64,000 bases of DNA, taken from Felixounavirus AN17P8. Position numbers and translations under genes: made by a program. The notes below the pieces were generated by a model that made no database searches, was not told the DNA's origin, and worked only from the letters and a program-made list of their open reading frames with translations. Location: the sequence record OZ035742.1; one strand, 5' to 3'. Positions 1,981 to 54,712 of this stretch are shown one piece after another (positions within the stretch are counted from its first letter, which is position 1; each line of letters starts with the position of its first letter).

Positions 1981-2880
1981 CTACTTACCTACTGACAAAG
2001 GTGCTTCAATCTTTCCTGCATGTTGGTAATTGTAAATGCCACCAATAAAATCACTTGCAGTGAGATGTTTTAAGTCACTTAAAGTGTTAAGTGGGATACC
2101 AATCTCAAAAGTTGGTGCATGGAACTCTTCATTGTTCATCAGTTCATAAACCTGCTTCATATGATTCTGATAAATCTGAGTATCTCCAAAGACACCTATC
2201 AAGTACCGTGGAGTGTATCCAGTCATCTTACAAAGAACTTCCAGAATAAAACCATAAGATGCAATATTAAACGGGAGTCCTAAAAAGGTGTCTACTGAAC
2301 GCTGATACCATTGTAAGTCAACTTCACCCTCGTTAGTGATATAAATCTGAAACAGAACATGACAAGGTGCTAAAGCCATCGAGTTGGATGCAATATCTGC
2401 TGCATTCCAAGCATTAACAAGCATGTAGCGGTCTGTAATATCACCCTTCATCTTCGTTACTAAGGTCTCTAACTGGTCTACAACACAACCATTATGACCT
2501 TCAAAGTTTCTCCACTGAACCCCGTAGATTCTCCCACCTGCGTCATCTAACCAGTCTTGTTCAGAAGAATAATTAGAGCTTAACCAGCGTTTAAAATCAT
2601 CTGACCAGATAGTCCAGCGTTCTCCATCATTTTCATCCCAAGTGCGGTAACGGAGTTCACCCAGTTTATTCTCACCATTCAGGAACCATAAAGCTTCCCC
2701 AATAACTTGCCGTGTAAACACCTGTTTAGATGTTAAGAGCGGGAAACCAGTTCGCATATCAAAACGAAACTGAGGTGGAGCAAAAGCAGAGATAACATCT
2801 CCAGTTCGTGTAGTACGTAGTTCACCAACGGATAAAACATGGTTCAGTATATTTTTGTAACTCGAATCTGCTTGTGACAT
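1981..2880 (-). CDS. thyA: thymidylate synthase
   Basis: ThyA motifs: active-site LAPCHVLFQIYI, RTGDVISAFAPPQFRFDM, YQRSVDTFLGLPFNIASY. Confidence 0.9.
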   Translation of the reverse strand: MSQADSSYKNILNHVLSVGELRTTRTGDVISAFAPPQFRFDMRTGFPLLTSKQVFTRQVIGEALWFLNGENKLGELRYRTWDENDGERWTIWSDDFKRWLSSNYSSEQDWLDDAGGRIYGVQWRNFEGHNGCVVDQLETLVTKMKGDITDRYMLVNAWNAADIASNSMALAPCHVLFQIYITNEGEVDLQWYQRSVDTFLGLPFNIASYGFILEVLCKMTGYTPRYLIGVFGDTQIYQNHMKQVYELMNNEEFHAPTFEIGIPLNTLSDLKHLTASDFIGGIYNYQHAGKIEAPLSVGK

Positions 2881-2881
2881 A

Positions 2882-3427
2882 TCAAAAGTGTCCTTTTACT
2901 TGTGGAACATAAATTTCAAAAGTTGCTTTACCATCCTCTGATGGTTTTGACTGTACCTTTGTAAATACACGGTTATCATACAGCTTCTCAAAGAAGTTTT
3001 CAAAAGGTAAATGCACAGTGACCTCTTCAGTAACTTTATGGAAAACAGTATGGAACACTACATCAGCATACGGTAAAGCATCGACAAGGACACCTGCGCC
3101 ACCAATTACAAAGACATCTTCATCAATAGAGCTATCAAGATACTTCAAAAATGCTCCAAATGACTCTTTACTGGCTTTAGCATACATTACATCATCTTTG
3201 CCAAAGTCTATGCCTAAGTATGGTACAGAATTTGTTAAGACGAGGTTTGCACGTTCTGGTAAAGGCTTACACCCCAGAGTCTTGAAAGTCTCATTCCCCA
3301 TCACTACTAAGTTATTTTTAGTTAGTCTCTTAAACTCTTGCATATCCTGTTTGTGTCGAGGCCACGGCATACCAGTTGGAGTACCAAACTCCCCATTTTC
3401 ACCACTTGCAAAGATTAACTTAATCAT
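2882..3427 (-). CDS. frd: dihydrofolate reductase
   Basis: DHFR pattern LIFA..G..MPW....D...FKRLT..N.VVMG..TFKTLG.PLP.R.NLVLT and VIGGAGVL; abuts thyA. Confidence 0.85.
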   Translation of the reverse strand: MIKLIFASGENGEFGTPTGMPWPRHKQDMQEFKRLTKNNLVVMGNETFKTLGCKPLPERANLVLTNSVPYLGIDFGKDDVMYAKASKESFGAFLKYLDSSIDEDVFVIGGAGVLVDALPYADVVFHTVFHKVTEEVTVHLPFENFFEKLYDNRVFTKVQSKPSEDGKATFEIYVPQVKGHF

Positions 3428-7272: not shown

Positions 7273-8412
7273 TTATTCGTAGTCTCGAATAACTAACCCG
7301 ACAGGGAACTGTAAAGACCCCTTACGAGTCATCTTCTGGAACTGAACCGTTAAAGGCTTCCCGATAAACTCTTCAGGATGCTCAGCAAGATACTGTTTCT
7401 TCTCATGAGTAGTCTTCCATGAGACATCTACAAAGACGTTAGGGAGGGTCTCTACAACGAACTTGCCATGACCACGCTTATCAGTCTTTACACCAGTCAC
7501 TTTAAACTCTTCAGTGTGCATCTTCTTGTGTTTAATCAAGAAGTATGAACGGTGACAACACTCATAGAAGGAGTCTTCAGAGATTGAACGGTACATTGCA
7601 CCTTCAAACTTAGCTTCAACCCACTTATCATGAGCTTCATCAAACTCTTCCCAAGAATTTACACGACGAGATTTAACAGGAACAACTCTACAGCCGTCTC
7701 TAAAGTCATTCAATGGTGAAGTCTCAATAATATCTCTACGCTCAGGCCACGTCTTAGTACTGTCACAGATATCGTACCAGTAAAACTTGAGTAGGTGTCG
7801 GTCAGGATTGTCTTCATTTTTAATCATGGAGACAATATCTTCTAAGTCCTGCCCATGAGCATAAATCTCACCATCAAATTCATCAACATCTTTGTGGAGC
7901 CTTAACATTGCCATAATGTCAGGTATTAGCTCAGTAGGAATTTTATAAACAGTATTCTCACGAGAGTATGCTGTAAATACACTACCGATGCTCAAGTGTC
8001 TTGAAATTCTACAACGGACACCATCAAGTTTTGGTTGAGCATCAGCAGGGAACTTCAGGTACTTCGCATGACTAACCTTTGCAGCATCATGAGCAAGCTG
8101 TACACCTACCTTCTCAGTATTCTGTGCAGACTCTTTTGTGTAAGCATAACCTTTACGGTCAACTTGCTTTTTATACTTAGCAGCAACTTCAAAGAGAGCT
8201 TGCTGTTCAGCGTTACGCTCATTCTTTTTACCGATGTTTTTAGGTTCTGCTGTATACTCTTCAAACATCATCTTGCCATTTTCTTTACCATAGGTTGTAA
8301 TAACTTTGTCACCTACAGCAACGCATGACCAGACGTTGAAAGAGCCATCTTTATTTTGTTTGTATAGGATTGTCATTTTATTCCTCTGAGTGATACCAAG
8401 TGTTGCAAGCAT
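7273..8412 (-). CDS. ATP-dependent DNA ligase
   Basis: Adenylation motif I KLDGVRC; length and later motifs fit a ligase. Confidence 0.8.
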   Translation of the reverse strand: MLATLGITQRNKMTILYKQNKDGSFNVWSCVAVGDKVITTYGKENGKMMFEEYTAEPKNIGKKNERNAEQQALFEVAAKYKKQVDRKGYAYTKESAQNTEKVGVQLAHDAAKVSHAKYLKFPADAQPKLDGVRCRISRHLSIGSVFTAYSRENTVYKIPTELIPDIMAMLRLHKDVDEFDGEIYAHGQDLEDIVSMIKNEDNPDRHLLKFYWYDICDSTKTWPERRDIIETSPLNDFRDGCRVVPVKSRRVNSWEEFDEAHDKWVEAKFEGAMYRSISEDSFYECCHRSYFLIKHKKMHTEEFKVTGVKTDKRGHGKFVVETLPNVFVDVSWKTTHEKKQYLAEHPEEFIGKPLTVQFQKMTRKGSLQFPVGLVIRDYE

Positions 8413-8569
8413 TACATGCGTAAAGCTCTAAGTCATTTTTATCCGGTTTATGAAAACAGTTTGCTCCGCAGTGGCAACGAAATGGCTTTCCACCAACTGT
8501 CAGGACGAAGGACTGAATCTTTCCATCAGGAGTTCGTACAGCATTTTTATGCTTATCTTCTTTGTTCAT
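8378..8569 (-). CDS. small zinc-binding protein
   Basis: Cys cluster CHCGANC...CNAC; overlaps ligase start by 35 nt. Confidence 0.35.
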   Translation of the reverse strand: MNKEDKHKNAVRTPDGKIQSFVLTVGGKPFRCHCGANCFHKPDKNDLELYACNACNTWYHSEE

Positions 8570-8772
8570 TTCCTCTTGCCACCAATTTCTACGTCAATAA
8601 CTTGAACATCACCAGCAACATCAAACTTATGAATGATGCTTTCCACAGTGTAAGTCCAATCCTCAATGCGAACCAACTCACCTTCTCGTGGGACGATTGG
8701 ATTACGTTGAGCTACCGTTGTAGTGGAGTGAACAACATCATAACGATAGATATAGTTTACTAATACTTCCAT
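8566..8772 (-). CDS. hypothetical protein (start trimmed to internal ATG)
   Basis: Internal ATG at 8772 has RBS gaggt and removes overlap with the upstream lipoprotein gene. Confidence 0.35.
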   Translation of the reverse strand: MEVLVNYIYRYDVVHSTTTVAQRNPIVPREGELVRIEDWTYTVESIIHKFDVAGDVQVIDVEIGGKRK

Positions 8773-8782
8773 CGTGAAAACC

Positions 8783-9040
8783 TCACTCAATAACCGTAGT
8801 ATGTGATTGACCATTTTTGCCATAGCTATAAGATGTTGTTGTTTGAGAGTTTGGGCATCTGACAACAACAATATCTCTGCTTATAGCATCACCATTGAGT
8901 TTGTAGATTTTGCAGTCTTGCATCTCTGGAGGGAGGCTGTAAGAAGCATCTTTGTTTTCATAAGATGGGTTGCAGCCAGCCAGAAAAATTACTCCAAGTG
9001 CAACCATTGCTTTCACGCAACTCTTAACCTTATTGTTCAC
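8783..9040 (-). CDS. lipoprotein
   Basis: Signal peptide with lipobox LAGC (MVALGVIFLAGCNPS). Confidence 0.5.
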   Translation of the reverse strand: MNNKVKSCVKAMVALGVIFLAGCNPSYENKDASYSLPPEMQDCKIYKLNGDAISRDIVVVRCPNSQTTTSYSYGKNGQSHTTVIE

Positions 9041-9172
9041 GATAGTCTACCTCTCTGTATGTTTTTAAATAGTGAGTGATGAGTTCTGGTAATTCACTAC
9101 GTTTAACGTTTGAACGAAGAAGTGTCCAGTCAAAACCTTTACCAACCCTTCCCCAGAGACTGTACATTTTCT

Positions 9173-9406
9173 TCATAGCAACTCCAGAATATCAATACGT
9201 TCGCCTTTGAGTACTCCAGTACGGTCTTTTGCAATCTTACCGTCAACGATAAGGATGTGTGTAGACCTTAAAGCATCGTTGTTAAAGGTTTTTACGAACT
9301 TGCTAGGCATGACTACAATGGACATCTCCTGAATTAACTCTGGAGTGTAGCAGTTATCATGAAGTTGCTGAATAACGTCTGCAAGTGTCATTTTTGGTGT
9401 CTCCAA
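9173..9406 (-). CDS. hypothetical protein
   Basis: 77-aa ORF. Confidence 0.35.
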   Translation of the reverse strand: METPKMTLADVIQQLHDNCYTPELIQEMSIVVMPSKFVKTFNNDALRSTHILIVDGKIAKDRTGVLKGERIDILELL

Positions 9407-9597
9407 TACTCAATATCAATAAGTTCTTGTGCAATACTTTTCAGATTACCTTTCAAGAAAACCTTCTCAGAACCTGAAAGAGATGAATTGTCAATTAACC
9501 TGCTCATCCTCTCAAACAACTTCTGTTTACGGTTCTTGATAGTTTCCTTTGAAGCACCTTTCATCATCGCTGCATGGGTTCTTCCACGGTGGCTCAT
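9388..9597 (-). CDS. hypothetical basic protein
   Basis: 69-aa Lys/Arg-rich ORF. Confidence 0.3.
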   Translation of the reverse strand: MSHRGRTHAAMMKGASKETIKNRKQKLFERMSRLIDNSSLSGSEKVFLKGNLKSIAQELIDIEYWRHQK

Positions 9598-9648
9598 AAT
9601 CCCTCCTATATAAGATATTGTATAAGGTACTCTTCCATGAGCACCTTG

Positions 9649-10182
9649 TCAAGATAGTTTTGCAAACTCTCCGTGGAGTTTAATAGCAGCTTCACAGTAA
9701 GCTTTATGGGCTTCTTCTGGTGTGTCATGGTAACCTAAAAACATCTTCTTACCTTTATAACTTATCTGTGCGACCCACTTACCAGACTTCTTTTTAAGAC
9801 TTACACCCTTGTACCCAGATTTATTGGTGACTGGTTTACCTTTATTCCAAGCACTTTGAAAATCATCTGCTTCCCTTAAGTTTACAATCCTGTTGTCAAG
9901 CGAGTCTCCGTTGATATGGTCAATGATACCTTTTGGCATCTTGCCATACACGTAAAGCCATGCGAGTCTGTGTGCTTTATGTGCTTTCTTGTCAAAATAG
10001 ATACTAATCTGTTTATGACCACTTGAATCAGTCTGGATATTACCTGCCACCTTTCCTGCATAATTACTGTTAAAAACACTAACAGCTCTTGATTTACCTT
10101 CTCTACGAAGCCAAGTAAAGACCCCTGTTTCGGGGTCATAGTGCAGCAGCTCCTTTAAACGTTTTTGTAAAATTAAATCCAT
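9649..10182 (-). CDS. HNH homing endonuclease with AP2-like DNA-binding domain
   Basis: HINGDSLDNRIVNLREA (HNH) plus GYKGVSLKKKSGKWVAQISYKGKKMFLGYHDTPEEAHKAY (AP2-like); paralog of 32334-32825. Confidence 0.7.
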   Translation of the reverse strand: MDLILQKRLKELLHYDPETGVFTWLRREGKSRAVSVFNSNYAGKVAGNIQTDSSGHKQISIYFDKKAHKAHRLAWLYVYGKMPKGIIDHINGDSLDNRIVNLREADDFQSAWNKGKPVTNKSGYKGVSLKKKSGKWVAQISYKGKKMFLGYHDTPEEAHKAYCEAAIKLHGEFAKLS

Positions 10183-38851: not shown

Positions 38852-39400
38852 ATGAAGAAATTGATTCTAGGTTTGTGCTTAATGTTTACAGCACACTTAT
38901 CTTATGCAGTTGACTGCCCAGAGCTATCAATTAGCCAAAAAGTAAACATGTTAAAAGCTTACCAGTATGGTGAGAATAACATGGGTAAAGGTTGGGGTAT
39001 CACTCTAGCTGCTATAGCCTTACAAGAGTCAGAGTTAGGTCTAAAGGTAGAGAATAAAAAGACCCATGACTATGGTATTTTCCAGAATCACTTGAAGACT
39101 GTTGTAAAGCGTAACAAAATCAGTCCTAATGTGGCTAAAAAGAAACTCTTAAAAGACTTTGACTATGCTGCGAAGGAAACGCACAAAGAACTTGAGTTTT
39201 GGACAAAGGTACATGGTCAGCCAAAGTCAAAGAAGACTTTACAAAAAGTTTTAGCGTCATATAATGCTGGGTATTCGTACAGAATCCCTAAAGCTAAGAA
39301 ATATTCTCAAGATGTTTATAACAATATGAAAGTAATTGCTCAATGTGAATTTGCAACAAACATTTCTAAGGTAAACCATGAAAAAATTAAGAAAGTCTGA
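38852..39400 (+). CDS. secreted lysozyme-like / lytic transglycosylase-like protein
   Basis: Signal peptide MKKLILGLCLMFTAHLSYA; ALQESELG...DYGIFQ resembles ES/GxxQ catalytic motifs. Confidence 0.4.
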   Translation: MKKLILGLCLMFTAHLSYAVDCPELSISQKVNMLKAYQYGENNMGKGWGITLAAIALQESELGLKVENKKTHDYGIFQNHLKTVVKRNKISPNVAKKKLLKDFDYAAKETHKELEFWTKVHGQPKSKKTLQKVLASYNAGYSYRIPKAKKYSQDVYNNMKVIAQCEFATNISKVNHEKIKKV

Positions 39401-40073
39401 TGTAGTATTGTGCCATGCTTATGACTTACATCCTCATGAGTTAGGTCTTGATTCCTGTGTATGGACTCCAGAACAGTGCAGGGATTTTGAAGACACCGCA
39501 AGAGAAGTTGTATGTTCACTTGAAGAGTTCCACACATCAGAACCAATTGTGAACGTTGTGGACAAAGAGACTGGACAATCCATAGGTGTAAGACGTGATA
39601 GTTTAGTCATAGTTAATAAAGACCTTATAGAAAAAGGGAATCTCATCTTAGCAGATATTGATGGTGTTCTTACAAATTTTAATCACGAAGATTGTTCAAC
39701 GGAATTGACTGATGGTTCATTTTCACAGTACACTAATCTTCTTGATTCTGTAAGAGCAAAACCAACGTATGTTTTCAATATCATTGATGCAATTGCTAAT
39801 CATGCTGCCGTTGGACTCTTGACAGCGAGAGGTGAATCTCAGAGAATACCCACTGAGATGTTTTTAAGGCATAACACGGAGCATGACTACATGCTTTTTA
39901 TGCGTGGTTTTGGGACTAACTCTATAAGTGCAGAAAGTTTGAAAGTGAGGATGATTCAGTCTTGCATTCTGCCTTACTTTAATATAGTATGTTTTATAGA
40001 AGACACAGAGAAGAATGTGCAGAAGGTGAACAGAATCCTTCCACACATCAAAACCATGTTAGTTAAACATTGA
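39378..40073 (+). CDS. HAD-like hydrolase domain protein
   Basis: HAD motif I ILADIDGVLT and motif II GLLTARGE in C-terminal half. Confidence 0.45.
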   Translation: MKKLRKSDVVLCHAYDLHPHELGLDSCVWTPEQCRDFEDTAREVVCSLEEFHTSEPIVNVVDKETGQSIGVRRDSLVIVNKDLIEKGNLILADIDGVLTNFNHEDCSTELTDGSFSQYTNLLDSVRAKPTYVFNIIDAIANHAAVGLLTARGESQRIPTEMFLRHNTEHDYMLFMRGFGTNSISAESLKVRMIQSCILPYFNIVCFIEDTEKNVQKVNRILPHIKTMLVKH

Positions 40074-40083
40074 GAGAAAACTT

Positions 40084-40548
40084 ATGAACAATATCATTAC
40101 GGTAGCACTGGACGTTACGGCAAACAAATCTGAAGTAGTTCGTAACATTATCAAGAGCAACTTTGAGGGTAAAATCTTCCGTGCTGTCAATGTAAAAGCA
40201 GACGGTAACATTCGGGAGTATCGTGCCCTTTTGAATGTTAAGAAACACGTCAAAGGTGCTGGTTCAACGACTGCACACAAAGAAAACCTGATGACCATCT
40301 ATGATATGGGGATGGCTTCAGAATTAGGTGCTGAAGGTATCGTTAAAGAAGGTGCTCCGTATCGCTCTTTCAATCTGGAAACTGCTCTCATGCTTTCCTT
40401 TACAAGTGGTTCTAAAACAACTACTTATCTCTTTACTGATGCTGCAACGGTATCTGCTATCAAGGATAGCACTGTCAAAGCTGGGGTAGCTGCTGCTGCA
40501 AAAGCTTCTTCGATGGCTGCAAATGTCCTTGCTAAAGTCCTCGGTTAA
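40084..40548 (+). CDS. hypothetical protein
   Basis: 154 aa; terminator follows. Confidence 0.4.
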   Translation: MNNIITVALDVTANKSEVVRNIIKSNFEGKIFRAVNVKADGNIREYRALLNVKKHVKGAGSTTAHKENLMTIYDMGMASELGAEGIVKEGAPYRSFNLETALMLSFTSGSKTTTYLFTDAATVSAIKDSTVKAGVAAAAKASSMAANVLAKVLG

Positions 40549-40560
40549 GGTTAAGATACA

Positions 40561-40582
40561 GGCTCCTTCGGGAGCCTTTTTC
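40561..40582 (+). terminator. rho-independent terminator
   Basis: GGCTCC-ttcg-GGAGCC-TTTTT. Confidence 0.6.
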
Positions 40583-40600
40583 ATTTCAGGAGATTGTTAA

Positions 40601-40948
40601 ATGACATTTAAAGAGTTCTGTCAAGCTACTTTCATAATTGTTTTCTTAGTTGGTGCAGGTGTCTGGGGAGGATACTCTTACAGAGACTATCAAGTTGCTG
40701 AAACTGAGCTAAACAATCAAAAGCTCATAAGTGTTGCTAAAGATGCTTATCAGGAAGGATTAGTCACACTGAGCACCAATTACAAGAATGATTTGAAAGA
40801 TGTGCTTGCTAAGAATAAGCATACAAAAGAGGTACTAACATATGAAAAAACTAAGCCAGAGTTTTATAATGTTTGTGTTACTGATAACTATGTCAGGGTG
40901 TTCAACGAACAAAGTGAACAGTACATTCAAAAACTCCCAAGTAAGTGA
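40601..40948 (+). CDS. N-terminal TM protein (i-spanin-like architecture)
   Basis: RBS ggag; TM helix FIIVFLVGAGVWGG; 3' end overlaps a lipoprotein gene in another frame. Confidence 0.3.
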   Translation: MTFKEFCQATFIIVFLVGAGVWGGYSYRDYQVAETELNNQKLISVAKDAYQEGLVTLSTNYKNDLKDVLAKNKHTKEVLTYEKTKPEFYNVCVTDNYVRVFNEQSEQYIQKLPSK

Positions 40949-41111
40949 GAGTGATAAGTACACTCAAGAAGAATCACGGTATATCATCAAAGGTAACACA
41001 GGCGGTGATGTAGCAGCAGCCCTTGAGTTCTATCGTGATGGATTTTACCAGTGTACACTCAAAGCTAATAACCTTATTGACATGATTTTATTAGGGAATA
41101 AGCAGCAATGA
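40842..41111 (+). CDS. lipoprotein (o-spanin-like position)
   Basis: RBS agagg; signal peptide with lipobox ITMSGC; starts inside the previous ORF and runs past its stop. Confidence 0.35.
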   Translation: MKKLSQSFIMFVLLITMSGCSTNKVNSTFKNSQVSESDKYTQEESRYIIKGNTGGDVAAALEFYRDGFYQCTLKANNLIDMILLGNKQQ

Positions 41112-41377
41112 CAGAGAATCAAGATACTTTCTATGTAGAGGGCTACTTACTGTTACCACGACCAAAAGAAACTTATATGCGAATTGATTTCTCACCAACC
41201 ATCATGGATAATGTGATGTGCCATATCTTTATGCAAGGTGTCACAGCACAACTTAAGCATGTTGGCAAAGAGTGCAAAATAAAGGTTGACACTCATCCAG
41301 AAATCAAAGAAAATCACTACACATGGTTCTTACCAGACTCTAAAGAAATCTTAGCAGTTCTTAAAACGAGGAAATGA
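41108..41377 (+). CDS. hypothetical protein
   Basis: 89 aa, coupled. Confidence 0.35.
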   Translation: MTENQDTFYVEGYLLLPRPKETYMRIDFSPTIMDNVMCHIFMQGVTAQLKHVGKECKIKVDTHPEIKENHYTWFLPDSKEILAVLKTRK

Positions 41378-41688
41378 TTATGCAATTCCAGCCAACAAAT
41401 CGTGGATTTTCTTATGCAGAATTTAAAGATGCTAAAGGGGAAATTTGTACTTTACAAGAGAGTTCATCATACGAACCATGTATCTGGTTAGGTGCTAAAG
41501 AGGTCTCTGTTCAGTACCTAGACAATGGCTGGAAAACACTTGATATCCCAGCATTAGTTGGTAAAGATTTTGTAGGTAATCAAAGAATGAAGCTCAATCA
41601 AGAACAGGTAAAAGAGTTGTTGCCGTACCTCCAATACTTTGCTGAAAATGGTGAATTACCAACAGAGGAACTTACAAATGCAGATTAA
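41374..41688 (+). CDS. hypothetical protein
   Basis: 104 aa, coupled. Confidence 0.35.
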   Translation: MIMQFQPTNRGFSYAEFKDAKGEICTLQESSSYEPCIWLGAKEVSVQYLDNGWKTLDIPALVGKDFVGNQRMKLNQEQVKELLPYLQYFAENGELPTEELTNAD

Positions 41689-42004
41689 TGGAAGAGACTT
41701 TGTAGCCGTTTACTACGAGAAAGGTAAAGAGGTTGGTGTAGCACAAGTAACTTATGGCAATGGTAAGTGGCTATATGGAACAATCGCAGTAGTAGGAACA
41801 AGAAGTGATACAAAAACTTTTAAAGATTGTGTTGACCTTCTTGAAGAATCCATCCAGAATCATTGGTGTCTGATATGGATGACTGATAACGAAGTGATGG
41901 AGCGTTTCAAAAAGATTGATATCAACATTGACAGTATTGAGCATGTTGATTTATATGAGCTAACTGAGAAGGTAAACTATGAAAGTAATACTAGCCAGAG
42001 ATAA
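41678..42004 (+). CDS. hypothetical protein
   Basis: Start trimmed to ATG 41678 with RBS gagg. Confidence 0.35.
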   Translation: MQINGRDFVAVYYEKGKEVGVAQVTYGNGKWLYGTIAVVGTRSDTKTFKDCVDLLEESIQNHWCLIWMTDNEVMERFKKIDINIDSIEHVDLYELTEKVNYESNTSQR

Positions 42005-45188: not shown

Positions 45189-45422
45189 ATGCTTACAACC
45201 ATTTATCTTATCCTTTCTATTTGTAATGGTCATTTATGTGATTTTAAAGGGCTTGAGGAGTTTACAGGGAGTAAAGAAAATGCTATTCAAGTTTGCCAGA
45301 TAGCAAGACAAGACTATCCCGCCAGTGATGATATTCAATGCTACTTTAAGACAGAAGATGAAGACGGCATTTATTTTGATAGTGTTGACGGTCAATATGA
45401 AATTATCATTGAAAAAGACTAG
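45189..45422 (+). CDS. small protein 4 of cassette cluster
   Basis: 77 aa, hydrophobic N-terminus MLTTIYLILSICNGHLC. Confidence 0.4.
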   Translation: MLTTIYLILSICNGHLCDFKGLEEFTGSKENAIQVCQIARQDYPASDDIQCYFKTEDEDGIYFDSVDGQYEIIIEKD

Positions 45423-52862: not shown

Positions 52863-53327
52863 TTACTTTGGATATACACTGTCAAGATAAATGTCAGCTT
52901 CCATTCTACGTCTATTTTTCAAGCCGTTTGAAGTTACCTTCTTACCTTTGACTGTAATCTTGTTCCACCACTGCATAGCTTCTGCACAACCTACCTTATT
53001 ACCAGCATTGTGGCGCTTGATAAATGTAGAGTCCTGCATAGCTGTGATACCGATGTTATATGTTTCACTTACAAGTGCATCAAACTCGTTCTGAGAAGTT
53101 GGAACCTTGATGGATTTGTTCACTGCTGCAACGAACTTTTCAACATCTGCGAGAAGATACTGTTCAGCTTGTTCAGCGGTAATCTTCATACCCATCTTAA
53201 CAGGCTTACCAGCAATACGGATAGTCCCATACCCAATTGTGGGGATTCCAGCAGAATCTTCGTAAGCCTCTAACTTAAGACCTTCAAAGAACTTAATAGC
53301 TTCTAAACCTTTCTGTGAGAGTTGCAT
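52863..53327 (-). CDS. endolysin, T4-type lysozyme (GH24-like)
   Basis: LEAIKFFEGLKLEAYEDSAGIPTIGYGT aligns with T4 lysozyme catalytic region (Glu, Asp, Thr triad). Confidence 0.85.
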   Translation of the reverse strand: MQLSQKGLEAIKFFEGLKLEAYEDSAGIPTIGYGTIRIAGKPVKMGMKITAEQAEQYLLADVEKFVAAVNKSIKVPTSQNEFDALVSETYNIGITAMQDSTFIKRHNAGNKVGCAEAMQWWNKITVKGKKVTSNGLKNRRRMEADIYLDSVYPK

Positions 53328-54712
53328 TATGCCTCCCCTGCTGGGTTAACTGTAACTGTTGCCGCATTAGATGTTACAGAGCCACCTGCGCCAGTCACTA
53401 CACAAGTGTAGCTTCCCGCATCAGCAGTGGTTGCACCTTCTTTGGTGTAAGTTGCAGTAGTTGCATCGAGGATGTCTTCCTCACCTTTCTTCCACTGGTA
53501 ACCTGTCGCACCTGTTGCCACAACATTCAGCGTTAATGTTTCACCTTCACTGATTTCTTGATTGGTTGGCTGTTGAGTGATTACCGGAAGTGCATTCACA
53601 GTAACTGTTGCTGCATTAGATGTGACTGTTGTGCCACCTGCACCAGTAACTACACAGGTGTATGAACCAGCATCGGCAGGAGCTACACTAGCTTTCGTGT
53701 AAGTCGCACCAGTTGCACTAGGGATGTTCACATTGTCCTTTTTCCATTGGTAACCTTCTGCGCCTGTAGCCTCAACACTCAGTGTCAAAGAGTTCCCCTC
53801 ATTAACTACCTGATTGGTTGGCTGCTTGGTAATAACTGGTAAAGCATTTACCGTGACAGTTGCAGGGCTAGAAGTAACAGAACCACCTGCACCTGTTACG
53901 ACGCAAGTGTATGAACCTGCATCTGCTGGCAGAGCGCCAGACTTGCTATAGATAGCCTCTGTAGCCGAAGGAATGTCAGAGCCATCTTTCTTCCACTGGT
54001 AACCCGTTGCACCCGTTGCAGTCACTTCCAAGCTGATGTTTCCACCCTCATTGATGGTCTGGCTAGAAGGTTGCTGTGTAATCACAGGTAGTGCATTAAC
54101 AGTAACTGTTGCCGCATCTGAGGTAACGCTTGTCCCAGCCTCTCCAGATACAACACAAGTGTATGAACCAGCATCAGAAGGGGCTACAGACTGTTTTGTG
54201 TAGGTTGCAGATGTGGCGCTAGTGATATCCTCACCATCTTTTTTCCATTGATATCCAGTGGCATTAGTTGCAATAACGCTTAGGTTAAGTGTACCACCTT
54301 CATTTACTGTTTGATTGGTTGGTTGCTGAGTGATTGATGGTGGCTTGATAGCGTCCTTCAACTTAGCATTCAACATTGAGAATGGTTTAACTCTTGCCAG
54401 CCACTCACAATAAACTGTATCAACGTCTTTACCATTGATAATTGCATATTGTAAGTCCATGAAGAAGTCAGAAGTTCTCATTTGAGCACCAACGCTGTAA
54501 AGCAACTCATCACTAAATGGGACTTTGTAGTCCGGTTTGTAGTCAAACTTCTCAACTTCTGCAATATCAGCTTCAGGCCAATACGAACTATAGGTGAGTG
54601 GTAAAATAGCCTCTTGATATGTTCTAAAATCATATCTCTTACCAGCCTTTACATTTGCAATGAAGCCCTTCACAAACTCTTTGAAGTCTGGGTAAGTCTT
54701 TGCTTTAATCAT
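53327..54712 (-). CDS. protein with N-terminal domain plus four tandem Ig-like repeats
   Basis: Four ~83-aa repeats each with QWKKDG and DAGSYTCVVTGAGG (Ig-like Gly-x-Tyr-x-Cys); N-terminal ~125 aa paralogous to adjacent gene. Confidence 0.6.
   Translation of the reverse strand: MIKAKTYPDFKEFVKGFIANVKAGKRYDFRTYQEAILPLTYSSYWPEADIAEVEKFDYKPDYKVPFSDELLYSVGAQMRTSDFFMDLQYAIINGKDVDTVYCEWLARVKPFSMLNAKLKDAIKPPSITQQPTNQTVNEGGTLNLSVIATNATGYQWKKDGEDITSATSATYTKQSVAPSDAGSYTCVVSGEAGTSVTSDAATVTVNALPVITQQPSSQTINEGGNISLEVTATGATGYQWKKDGSDIPSATEAIYSKSGALPADAGSYTCVVTGAGGSVTSSPATVTVNALPVITKQPTNQVVNEGNSLTLSVEATGAEGYQWKKDNVNIPSATGATYTKASVAPADAGSYTCVVTGAGGTTVTSNAATVTVNALPVITQQPTNQEISEGETLTLNVVATGATGYQWKKGEEDILDATTATYTKEGATTADAGSYTCVVTGAGGSVTSNAATVTVNPAGEA
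53346..54340. repeat. four tandem ~249-bp coding repeats (Ig-like domains)
   Basis: Units start near 53346, 53594, 53843, 54094 with shared GTAACTGTTGC...CACCTGCACC strings. Confidence 0.75.

Follow-up and report, generated by a model that had tools for sequence, protein, structure and literature searches.

Two unrelated lipoprotein loci in Felixounavirus AN17P8: an overlapped spanin pair and a probable accessory envelope lipoprotein of the DUF4884 family

What do two small lipoprotein genes contribute to Felixounavirus AN17P8? A sequence-only reading of a 64,000-nucleotide (nt) stretch of this phage (sequence record OZ035742.1; hereafter the window) had singled out two open reading frames (ORFs) that begin with a signal peptide closed by a lipobox, at 8783-9040 (LAGC) and 40842-41111 (MSGC), and had grouped them as one class of finding with candidate superinfection-exclusion or spanin functions. 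Both ORFs are present where that reading put them, and both satisfy PROSITE PS00013 together with its two positional rules; grouping them is misleading, because the proteins are unrelated, and the interpretation as a whole is partly supported. We consider it likely that the window holds two separate things: an overlapped spanin pair, in which 40842-41111 encodes the outer-membrane partner (o-spanin, ORF B2) of an inner-membrane partner (i-spanin) encoded by 40601-40948, and a small accessory envelope lipoprotein encoded by 8783-9040 (ORF A). The three genes are as follows.

8783..9040, minus strand: ORF A, an 85-residue DUF4884 / phrog_902 lipoprotein.
40601..40948, plus strand: i-spanin, 115 residues, with an N-terminal transmembrane domain (TMD), a periplasmic domain with a single cysteine, Cys92, and the conserved motif EKTKPxFYNVCxxDxYVxxFNE at the C-terminus.
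40842..41111, plus strand: o-spanin (ORF B2), 89 residues, in the +1 frame relative to the i-spanin gene, with the conserved motif LEFYRDxFYQCxxxxNxLID.

Both named regions match Felixounavirus (Felix O1-like myovirus) relatives, each in about 257-258 phage records. Region 40000-41800 is 99.1% identical in DNA to Salmonella phage Felix O1, and region 8566-9406 is 99.8% identical to its closest relative, Escherichia phage adrianh. By itself, the lipobox rule is not significant in the window and is weak evidence for either ORF: in six frames, four distinct ORFs of at least 50 amino acids (aa) match PS00013, and 40 Markov shuffles of the window gave 1.35 +/- 1.15 with a maximum of 4. That ORF A and the o-spanin gene are nevertheless genuine follows from the conservation of the lipobox cysteine and of downstream motifs in homologs as distant as 27-34% identity and, for ORF A, from a ratio of nonsynonymous to synonymous substitution rates (dN/dS) of 0.115 in the mature part. 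Also fitting the PROSITE rule are an ORF at 9359-9613 (plus strand), which lies antisense to conserved minus-strand genes and looks like chance, and a TTG-started ORF of 53 aa at 45234-45395 (minus strand). Promoter and terminator scans around both loci returned nothing better than shuffles, except for the terminator at 40560.

The overlap at the second locus is as the sequence-only reading had described it, with 40842-41111 starting inside 40601-40948 and passing its stop. The o-spanin start lies 241 nt into the i-spanin gene, the two genes share 107 nt, and the o-spanin gene continues for 163 nt past the i-spanin stop. It opens with an ATG preceded 8 nt upstream by AAGAGGT and encodes an N-terminus of MKKLSQSFIMFVLLITMSGC followed by STNK; its lipobox MSGC places the predicted lipidation site at Cys20, with Ser at position +2, and leaves a mature protein of 70 aa with one periplasmic cysteine, Cys71. 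The only hydrophobic segment of the i-spanin spans residues 6-24 (Kyte-Doolittle mean 1.75). The pair thus combines an N-terminal TMD, a lipobox without Asp at +2, an overlapped architecture, periplasmic cysteines and homology to known spanins.

The homology is clearest for the i-spanin, which matches phrog_1152 ("Rz-like spanin") with an expect value (E) of 1.1e-41. The best PHROG match of the o-spanin is phrog_4180, which has no function assigned, followed by a weaker match to phrog_456 ("Rz-like spanin", E 7.7e-5). In the RefSeq record of Felix O1, ORF6 is labelled "Rz-like spanin" and ORF7 is still a "hypothetical protein", and in many relatives, among them dune, UAB_69, garuso and Mijalis, the two genes are annotated as i-spanin and o-spanin. 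The spanin census of Kongari et al. 2018 (PMC6139136) places the "Felix01, FO1a, UAB_phi87" group in its overlapped class. By tblastn, the o-spanin has matches in 338 records and the i-spanin in 401, and the two genes occur together in each homologous locus examined, including those of Hafnia phage Zyzzx and Erwinia phage phiEa104 (both Ounavirinae outside the genus Felixounavirus), podovirus EP335 and siphovirus Sasha. When the window proteins were aligned with those of these four phages, the o-spanin lipobox cysteine, Cys71 and the motif (L/A)E(F/W)Y(R/Q)DxYxxCxxxxNGLI(D/E) were kept in all five sequences, and Cys92 of the i-spanin was kept inside EKTKPxFxNxCxxDxYxxxFNE. Independent evidence from context for a role in lysis comes from Sasha, in which the homologous pair (gp55/gp56) follows a holin, an endolysin and a membrane protein in the annotation of the Center for Phage Technology; gp55 is annotated there as "TMD (7-29) N in, C out", the layout of an i-spanin. 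Altogether, these matches, annotations and gene placements bear out the i-spanin/o-spanin reading of 40601-40948 and 40842-41111, and we regard it as well supported that they are an overlapped two-component spanin that is already in the literature and in database annotations. A literature search returned no experiment on spanins of the Felix O1 type.

The surroundings of the pair bear on two doubts that the sequence-only reading had raised about the o-spanin, namely its lack of proline and its distance from the endolysin gene.

39378..40073, plus strand: polynucleotide kinase gene (pseT-like), two genes upstream of the spanin pair.
40560..40577, plus strand: strong intrinsic-terminator-like hairpin, AGGCTCC-TTCG-GGAGCCT plus a T run; 23 nt separate it from the start codon of the i-spanin.
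52866..53327, minus strand: endolysin gene, 154 aa, 96.8% identical to the Felix O1 endolysin, placed by tblastn.

The kinase gene is a landmark common to Felix O1, dune and Hafnia phage Zyzzx, and the names pseT.2 and pseT.3 likewise place the T4 spanin genes next to the polynucleotide kinase gene pseT. Between the hairpin and the i-spanin gene, the promoter scan found no promoter-like site; transcripts of the spanin genes may arise by read-through or from a phage promoter of unrecognised type. The pair sits in a block with rII and nucleotide-metabolism genes, the phage carrying both rIIA and rIIB, and the endolysin gene is 11.8 kb away on the opposite strand, so that there is no linkage to a holin or endolysin gene. 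Both doubts are correct as observations, since proline accounts for zero of the 89 o-spanin residues and the proline-rich region, a feature of the lambda Rz1 family only, is missing; as objections they fail, because both traits are normal in some spanin families. The T4 spanins PseT.3/PseT.2 share both: their genes are not near t and e (holin and endolysin), and the o-spanin PseT.2 is a structured beta-alpha-beta protein that is not proline-rich (Kongari et al. 2018, PMC6139136). Scattered lysis genes are also described for Felix O1-like phages in the Moogle genome note.

Could 40842-41111 instead encode an exclusion or receptor-masking lipoprotein that merely overlaps a membrane-protein gene? 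The absence of proline, the 11.8 kb to the endolysin gene, the rII/nucleotide-metabolism block and a best PHROG without assigned function would all suit such a protein. Against it stand the phrog_1152 partner, found in the same overlapped layout across the myo-, podo- and siphoviruses examined, the position of the Sasha pair inside a lysis cassette, the invariance of a single periplasmic cysteine in each partner, as expected of disulfide-linked spanins, and the inclusion of the group in a curated spanin census (PMC6139136), while T4 demonstrates that a spanin can do without proline richness and without a place in a lysis cassette. We therefore find the receptor-masking alternative for this ORF unsupported and judge it very improbable.

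Compared with known systems, the window pair and Felix O1 ORF6/ORF7 (the SpaninDB group of Kongari et al. 2018) are the same genes, with the same overlapped layout, lipobox and cysteines and no difference of substance. The T4 pair is likewise two-component and encoded outside a lysis cassette, and its o-spanin, structured rather than proline-rich, relies on periplasmic cysteines, as the proline-free window o-spanin may do. The T4 genes are separated, whereas those of the window overlap, and both periplasmic cysteines of the T4 pair belong to the o-spanin, whereas the window partners have one each; no sequence similarity to the T4 spanins was detected, and T4 is not among the tblastn matches listed, which are a sample of the 338-401 records. 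Lambda Rz/Rz1 resembles the window pair in that a type II inner-membrane protein is joined by an outer-membrane lipoprotein whose gene uses another frame of the same DNA, with periplasmic cysteines for intermolecular disulfides. The Rz1 gene is of the fully embedded kind, and its product contains a penta-proline stretch that is sensitive to mutation (PMC6139136), whereas the window o-spanin is overlapped, proline-free and longer (70-aa mature protein).

By analogy with lambda Rz/Rz1 and T4 PseT.3/PseT.2, and given the anatomy and homology of the pair, the N-terminal TMD would hold the i-spanin in the inner membrane, and Cys20 of the o-spanin would receive the lipid, with the Ser at +2 directing this protein to the outer membrane. 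Their periplasmic domains would bind each other across the periplasm, with the single conserved cysteines stabilising the complex covalently, and, after degradation of the peptidoglycan by the endolysin, the complex would bring about fusion or disruption of the outer membrane. The pair adds nothing new to what is known of spanins; it confirms that an overlapped, proline-free spanin outside any lysis cassette is normal for the genus.

Many database records mislabel the o-spanin or truncate its start. The annotated coding sequence begins at or after the lipobox, with loss of the signal peptide, in dune (locus 1391-1612), phiEa104 (locus 1648-1776) and Zyzzx (locus 1573-1752); the full ORFs in these three phages start 48-147 nt further upstream, with good ribosome-binding sites.

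ORF A is a different kind of protein. It starts with a GTG, has a GAGAGG Shine-Dalgarno sequence 9 nt upstream and encodes an N-terminus of MNNKVKSCVKAMVALGVIFLAGC followed by NPSY, in which the lipobox LAGC closes the signal peptide and Cys23 is the predicted lipid-attachment residue. A second in-frame GTG at 9016 corresponds to the "MWKA" start of most relatives and leaves the mature protein unchanged. This mature protein has 63 aa and carries Cys43, Cys62 and the motif VVRCPNSQTTTSYSYGK; its C-terminal half (ending in SYSYGKNGQSHTTVIE) is polar and has no hydrophobic segment. Among 22 Felix O1-like sequences, including that of the window, dN/dS is 0.115 in the mature part and 0.48 in the hydrophobic signal segment, the contrast expected of a genuine exported protein. 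AlphaFold2 (AF2) models of the full-length and the mature-only protein give the same picture, of a signal helix and then five beta strands, with moderate confidence (predicted local distance difference test scores of 69 and 71, respectively). In the model, Cys43 faces Cys62 at the open end of the hairpin formed by strands two and three, and the two cysteines probably form a disulfide. A profile search of the family against PDB sequences and a fold search with the models gave no match, and scans with PADLOC, NCBIfam and Pfam-A recovered only the generic lipid-attachment signature.

Homologs of ORF A are numerous. The protein matches phrog_902 (no assigned function) over residues 2-83 with E 2.9e-18 and, marginally, phrog_15147 (no assigned function, E 0.009), and an exhaustive search of 1.84 billion representative proteins with the family profile returned 631 clusters at E <= 1e-3, all members among the matches listed being 61-137 aa long. 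A recognisable lipobox, mostly L[ASTV][GA]C, is present in 138 of the 151 top hits; besides the lipobox cysteine, 102 of these 138 carry exactly two more, and 26 carry four. Homologs with 27-44% identity in Aeromonas phage PAc, Serratia jumbo phage BF, the Acinetobacter T4-like phage Acj61, E. coli jumbo phage 121Q and the ~114-kb Vibrio phages all retain the lipobox cysteine, Cys43, Cys62 and VVRCPNSxTxTxYxxGK, a motif that is invariant over the eight phage lineages aligned and is preceded by a further family motif, YxLPxELxDCK. The +2 residue varies, being N in ORF A, D in 121Q and BF, and S, E or T elsewhere. Carriers include Felix O1-like, T4-like, jumbo, ~114-kb Vibrio and small sipho-type phages, and homologs at 27-50% identity come from phages that infect Vibrio, Acinetobacter, Aeromonas, Serratia, Yersinia and E. 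coli.

In the precomputed annotation of the database, homologs of ORF A are labelled PF16225:DUF4884 (E <= 1e-5), and "DUF4884 domain-containing protein" is already the NCBI name for phage proteins such as that of siphophage Henu8. Our own Pfam-A scans of ORF A did not reproduce the PF16225 match, and we use the label as given by the database; it is also attached to Bacteroides proteins. A degenerate DNA pattern back-translated from the conserved core (VVRCPN[ST]xT[ST]T), which covers only part of the DUF4884 family, gave two chance matches only in 185,579 bacterial species genomes, and the one "bacterial" family member that we inspected lies on a phage-like contig that also carries the genes for ribonucleotide reductase, Thy1 and MazG. 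As judged from these searches, the family appears to be restricted to phages. Literature searches with the family identifiers, and for Felixounavirus or ICP1 exclusion lipoproteins, returned no functional work; ORF A is thus a member of a large, conserved and experimentally untouched lipoprotein family of virulent phages.

The gene is situated between the DNA polymerase/HNH genes and the ligase gene, in the orientation of the replication genes, with two small neighbours.

9030..9176, minus strand: 48-residue ORF, phrog_2381, without a transmembrane segment; overlaps the start of ORF A by 11 nt.
8566..8772, minus strand: 68-residue gene, phrog_4427, downstream of ORF A; its true start is the ATG at 8772.

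Because it shares their orientation and overlaps the ORF upstream, ORF A is probably co-expressed with the replication genes. Together with the 48-residue ORF it makes up a cassette of ~400 bp that some Felixounaviruses carry and others lack. In cassette-free members, phiWec172 and several more, the gene upstream ends directly before the one downstream begins. A close homolog of ORF A is found in roughly 197 of the ~257 Felix O1-like records. ORF A is, accordingly, an accessory gene that is dispensable in some relatives. The 48-residue ORF is not an obligate partner, since the metagenomic variant P0006 retains ORF A and has lost most of that ORF, and neither this ORF nor the 68-residue one has a hydrophobic segment that could make it a membrane-anchored partner. 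No conserved neighbour emerged from pairwise BLAST of the flanking genes in six annotated phages, and when 809 flanking ORFs from 45 IMG/VR loci were clustered, the recurrent clusters were all confined to Felix O1-like contigs.

Among the metagenomic relatives P0012, P0013 and P0006, frameshifted and truncated copies of ORF A occur, and in one metagenomic variant the start of the 48-residue ORF is fused straight onto the lipoprotein; such copies fit an accessory gene under gain and loss. In the adrianh record (locus 601-1064), ORF A is unannotated: the downstream gene is extended to a TTG, giving a call of 303 nt that covers the 3' end of ORF A, and the rest of ORF A falls into a stretch without annotation.

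What, then, might ORF A do? That the gene is real seems secure. It could be supposed that the ORF and its lipobox arose by chance, or are an annotation artefact, and that the real gene is the TTG-started form of the phrog_4427 gene (8566-8871, 101 aa), which reaches into ORF A; the lipobox rule alone is not significant in the window, and adrianh, despite 99.8% identity, carries the overlapping 303-nt annotation in place of ORF A. This supposition is hardly credible in view of the strong constraint on the mature part (dN/dS as above) and of the 631 homolog clusters with their conserved lipobox, cysteines and motif. Moreover, the phrog_4427 match begins only at residue 34 of the longer form, that is, at ATG 8772, just past the ORF A stop and with its own Shine-Dalgarno sequence, and the 258-nt gene is annotated in other relatives. 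One could also imagine a role in lysis, as a second o-spanin, as a unimolecular spanin (u-spanin) or as a periplasmic protein, an antiholin for instance, that controls when the cell lyses. This would be in keeping with the outer-membrane type of the lipoprotein signal and with the presence of rIIA and rIIB; periplasmic proteins that regulate lysis, T4 RI among them, are encoded by phages whose lysis genes are scattered, as they are in T4 and Felix O1. We nevertheless hold such a role to be quite improbable: ORF A has no adjacent or overlapping membrane-anchored partner and no recurrent neighbour of any kind, it matches no lysis PHROG, and it is absent from some fully viable relatives. As a u-spanin of the T1 gp11 type it was rejected, because its polar C-terminal half lacks the C-terminal TMD that such a protein requires in addition to the lipobox. 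Because it has neither a transmembrane partner nor a C-terminal TMD, and because the phage already has a complete spanin pair, ORF A is not a spanin, and the spanin option that had been proposed for 8783-9040 is not sustained.

A third possibility is that ORF A is a receptor-masking exclusion lipoprotein of the T5 Llp or phi80 Cor type, which would bind the outer-membrane receptor of the phage itself, block re-adsorption and keep progeny from being inactivated by cell debris. T5 Llp and phi80/N15 Cor are, like ORF A, small phage-made lipoproteins of similar size; they act from the periplasmic side of the envelope. Llp and Cor are also beta-rich, and the anatomy of ORF A resembles that of Llp in that it is small, beta-rich, likely to contain a disulfide and encoded away from structural genes; some relatives do without it, which would be conceivable for an exclusion gene. 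However, neither sequence nor fold similarity to these proteins was found, the family profile showing none to any solved structure, Llp included, and the gene is not beside a receptor-binding or tail-fibre gene. The Felix O1 receptor is the lipopolysaccharide core, which would be hard for a stoichiometric lipoprotein to mask, and the phages with homologs infect at least six bacterial genera, among which a common protein receptor is unlikely. Since the family is found in phages of such different hosts, a receptor-specific mask of the Llp/Cor type is unlikely.

We therefore favour the reading of ORF A as an accessory envelope lipoprotein that is independent of a particular receptor. After cleavage by signal peptidase II, ORF A would be a 63-residue domain of five beta strands that is anchored to a membrane and exposed to the periplasm; its Asn at +2 predicts an outer-membrane location in enterobacteria. 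Since the +2 residue varies across the family, the membrane to which the protein is tethered may not be important, which would fit a periplasmic target. The gene appears to move as a standalone unit among unrelated virulent phages of many Gammaproteobacteria, and its product might act on the envelope by binding a conserved periplasmic or membrane component; because the family spans phages of so many hosts, such a target should be conserved across Gammaproteobacteria. We tentatively suggest that ORF A is an accessory periplasmic effector that serves general superinfection exclusion or protects the infected envelope. By extension, it is tempting to speculate that DUF4884 proteins constitute an unrecognised, widespread class of envelope effectors of virulent phages, built on a disulfide-stapled beta domain of ~60 residues and acting in exclusion or protection independently of a receptor. 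Speculatively, they could be the lipoprotein counterpart of T4 Spackle and Imm rather than of T5 Llp, with a target conserved across Gammaproteobacteria.

T4 Spackle (gp61.3) is, like ORF A, a small, exported, non-essential protein; the two are not homologous. Spackle is helical and soluble in the periplasm, unlike the beta-rich lipoprotein ORF A. Identity of ORF A with Spackle was rejected, as its PHROG matches are only phrog_902 and the marginal phrog_15147 and not phrog_1586. In Acj61, a spackle homolog (phrog_1586, E 8.9e-17) lies directly downstream of the DUF4884 gene (locus 2501-3091), two genes upstream of 61.1/primase, so that two genes for exported proteins adjoin. A jackhmmer search found no such adjacency in the remaining 44 loci, and linkage to spackle, a single case among 45 loci, was discarded as a clue to the family. 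In 121Q, a gene for a small cysteine-rich lipoprotein (gene 177, locus 3120-3395) that starts with MIKKLLTVVFVFCTMFLTAC and belongs to phrog_31263 (function unknown) is found two genes downstream of the DUF4884 gene.

Nothing in the window pair or in ORF A departs from known kinds of system. ORF A is the more useful of the two loci, as its family is large, strongly conserved and exported and is without function, structure or literature, and the gene is small, non-essential and easy to clone. Its presence and absence among near-identical Felixounaviruses, phages used in the biocontrol of Salmonella and E. coli, constitutes a natural polymorphism. If ORF A does confer general exclusion or envelope protection, this would bear on the design of phage cocktails, in which phages can exclude one another, and would extend the few known kinds of periplasmic phage effector by a new one.

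Several further features of the two regions deserve mention. The HNH homing-endonuclease gene at 9649-10182 (minus strand) lies between the DNA polymerase gene and the small-ORF block that contains the lipoprotein gene, and the stretch made up of the HNH gene and this block differs by insertions and deletions among relatives and looks like a hotspot of gene gain and loss. On the other side of the lipoprotein gene, a 63-residue ORF at 8378-8569 (minus strand) has a zinc-ribbon-like CxC…CxxC motif and belongs to phrog_5768 (function unknown); its label "DNA ligase" in several relatives looks carried over from the true ligase gene at 7273-8412. Abutting the endolysin gene, 53327-54712 (minus strand) encodes a 461-residue protein that consists largely of four immunoglobulin-like repeats (…QWKKDGxDIxSATxATYxK…DAGSYTCVV…); its counterpart in Felix O1 is the homologous "tail protein 12" (294 aa), compared with which it appears to have extra repeats.

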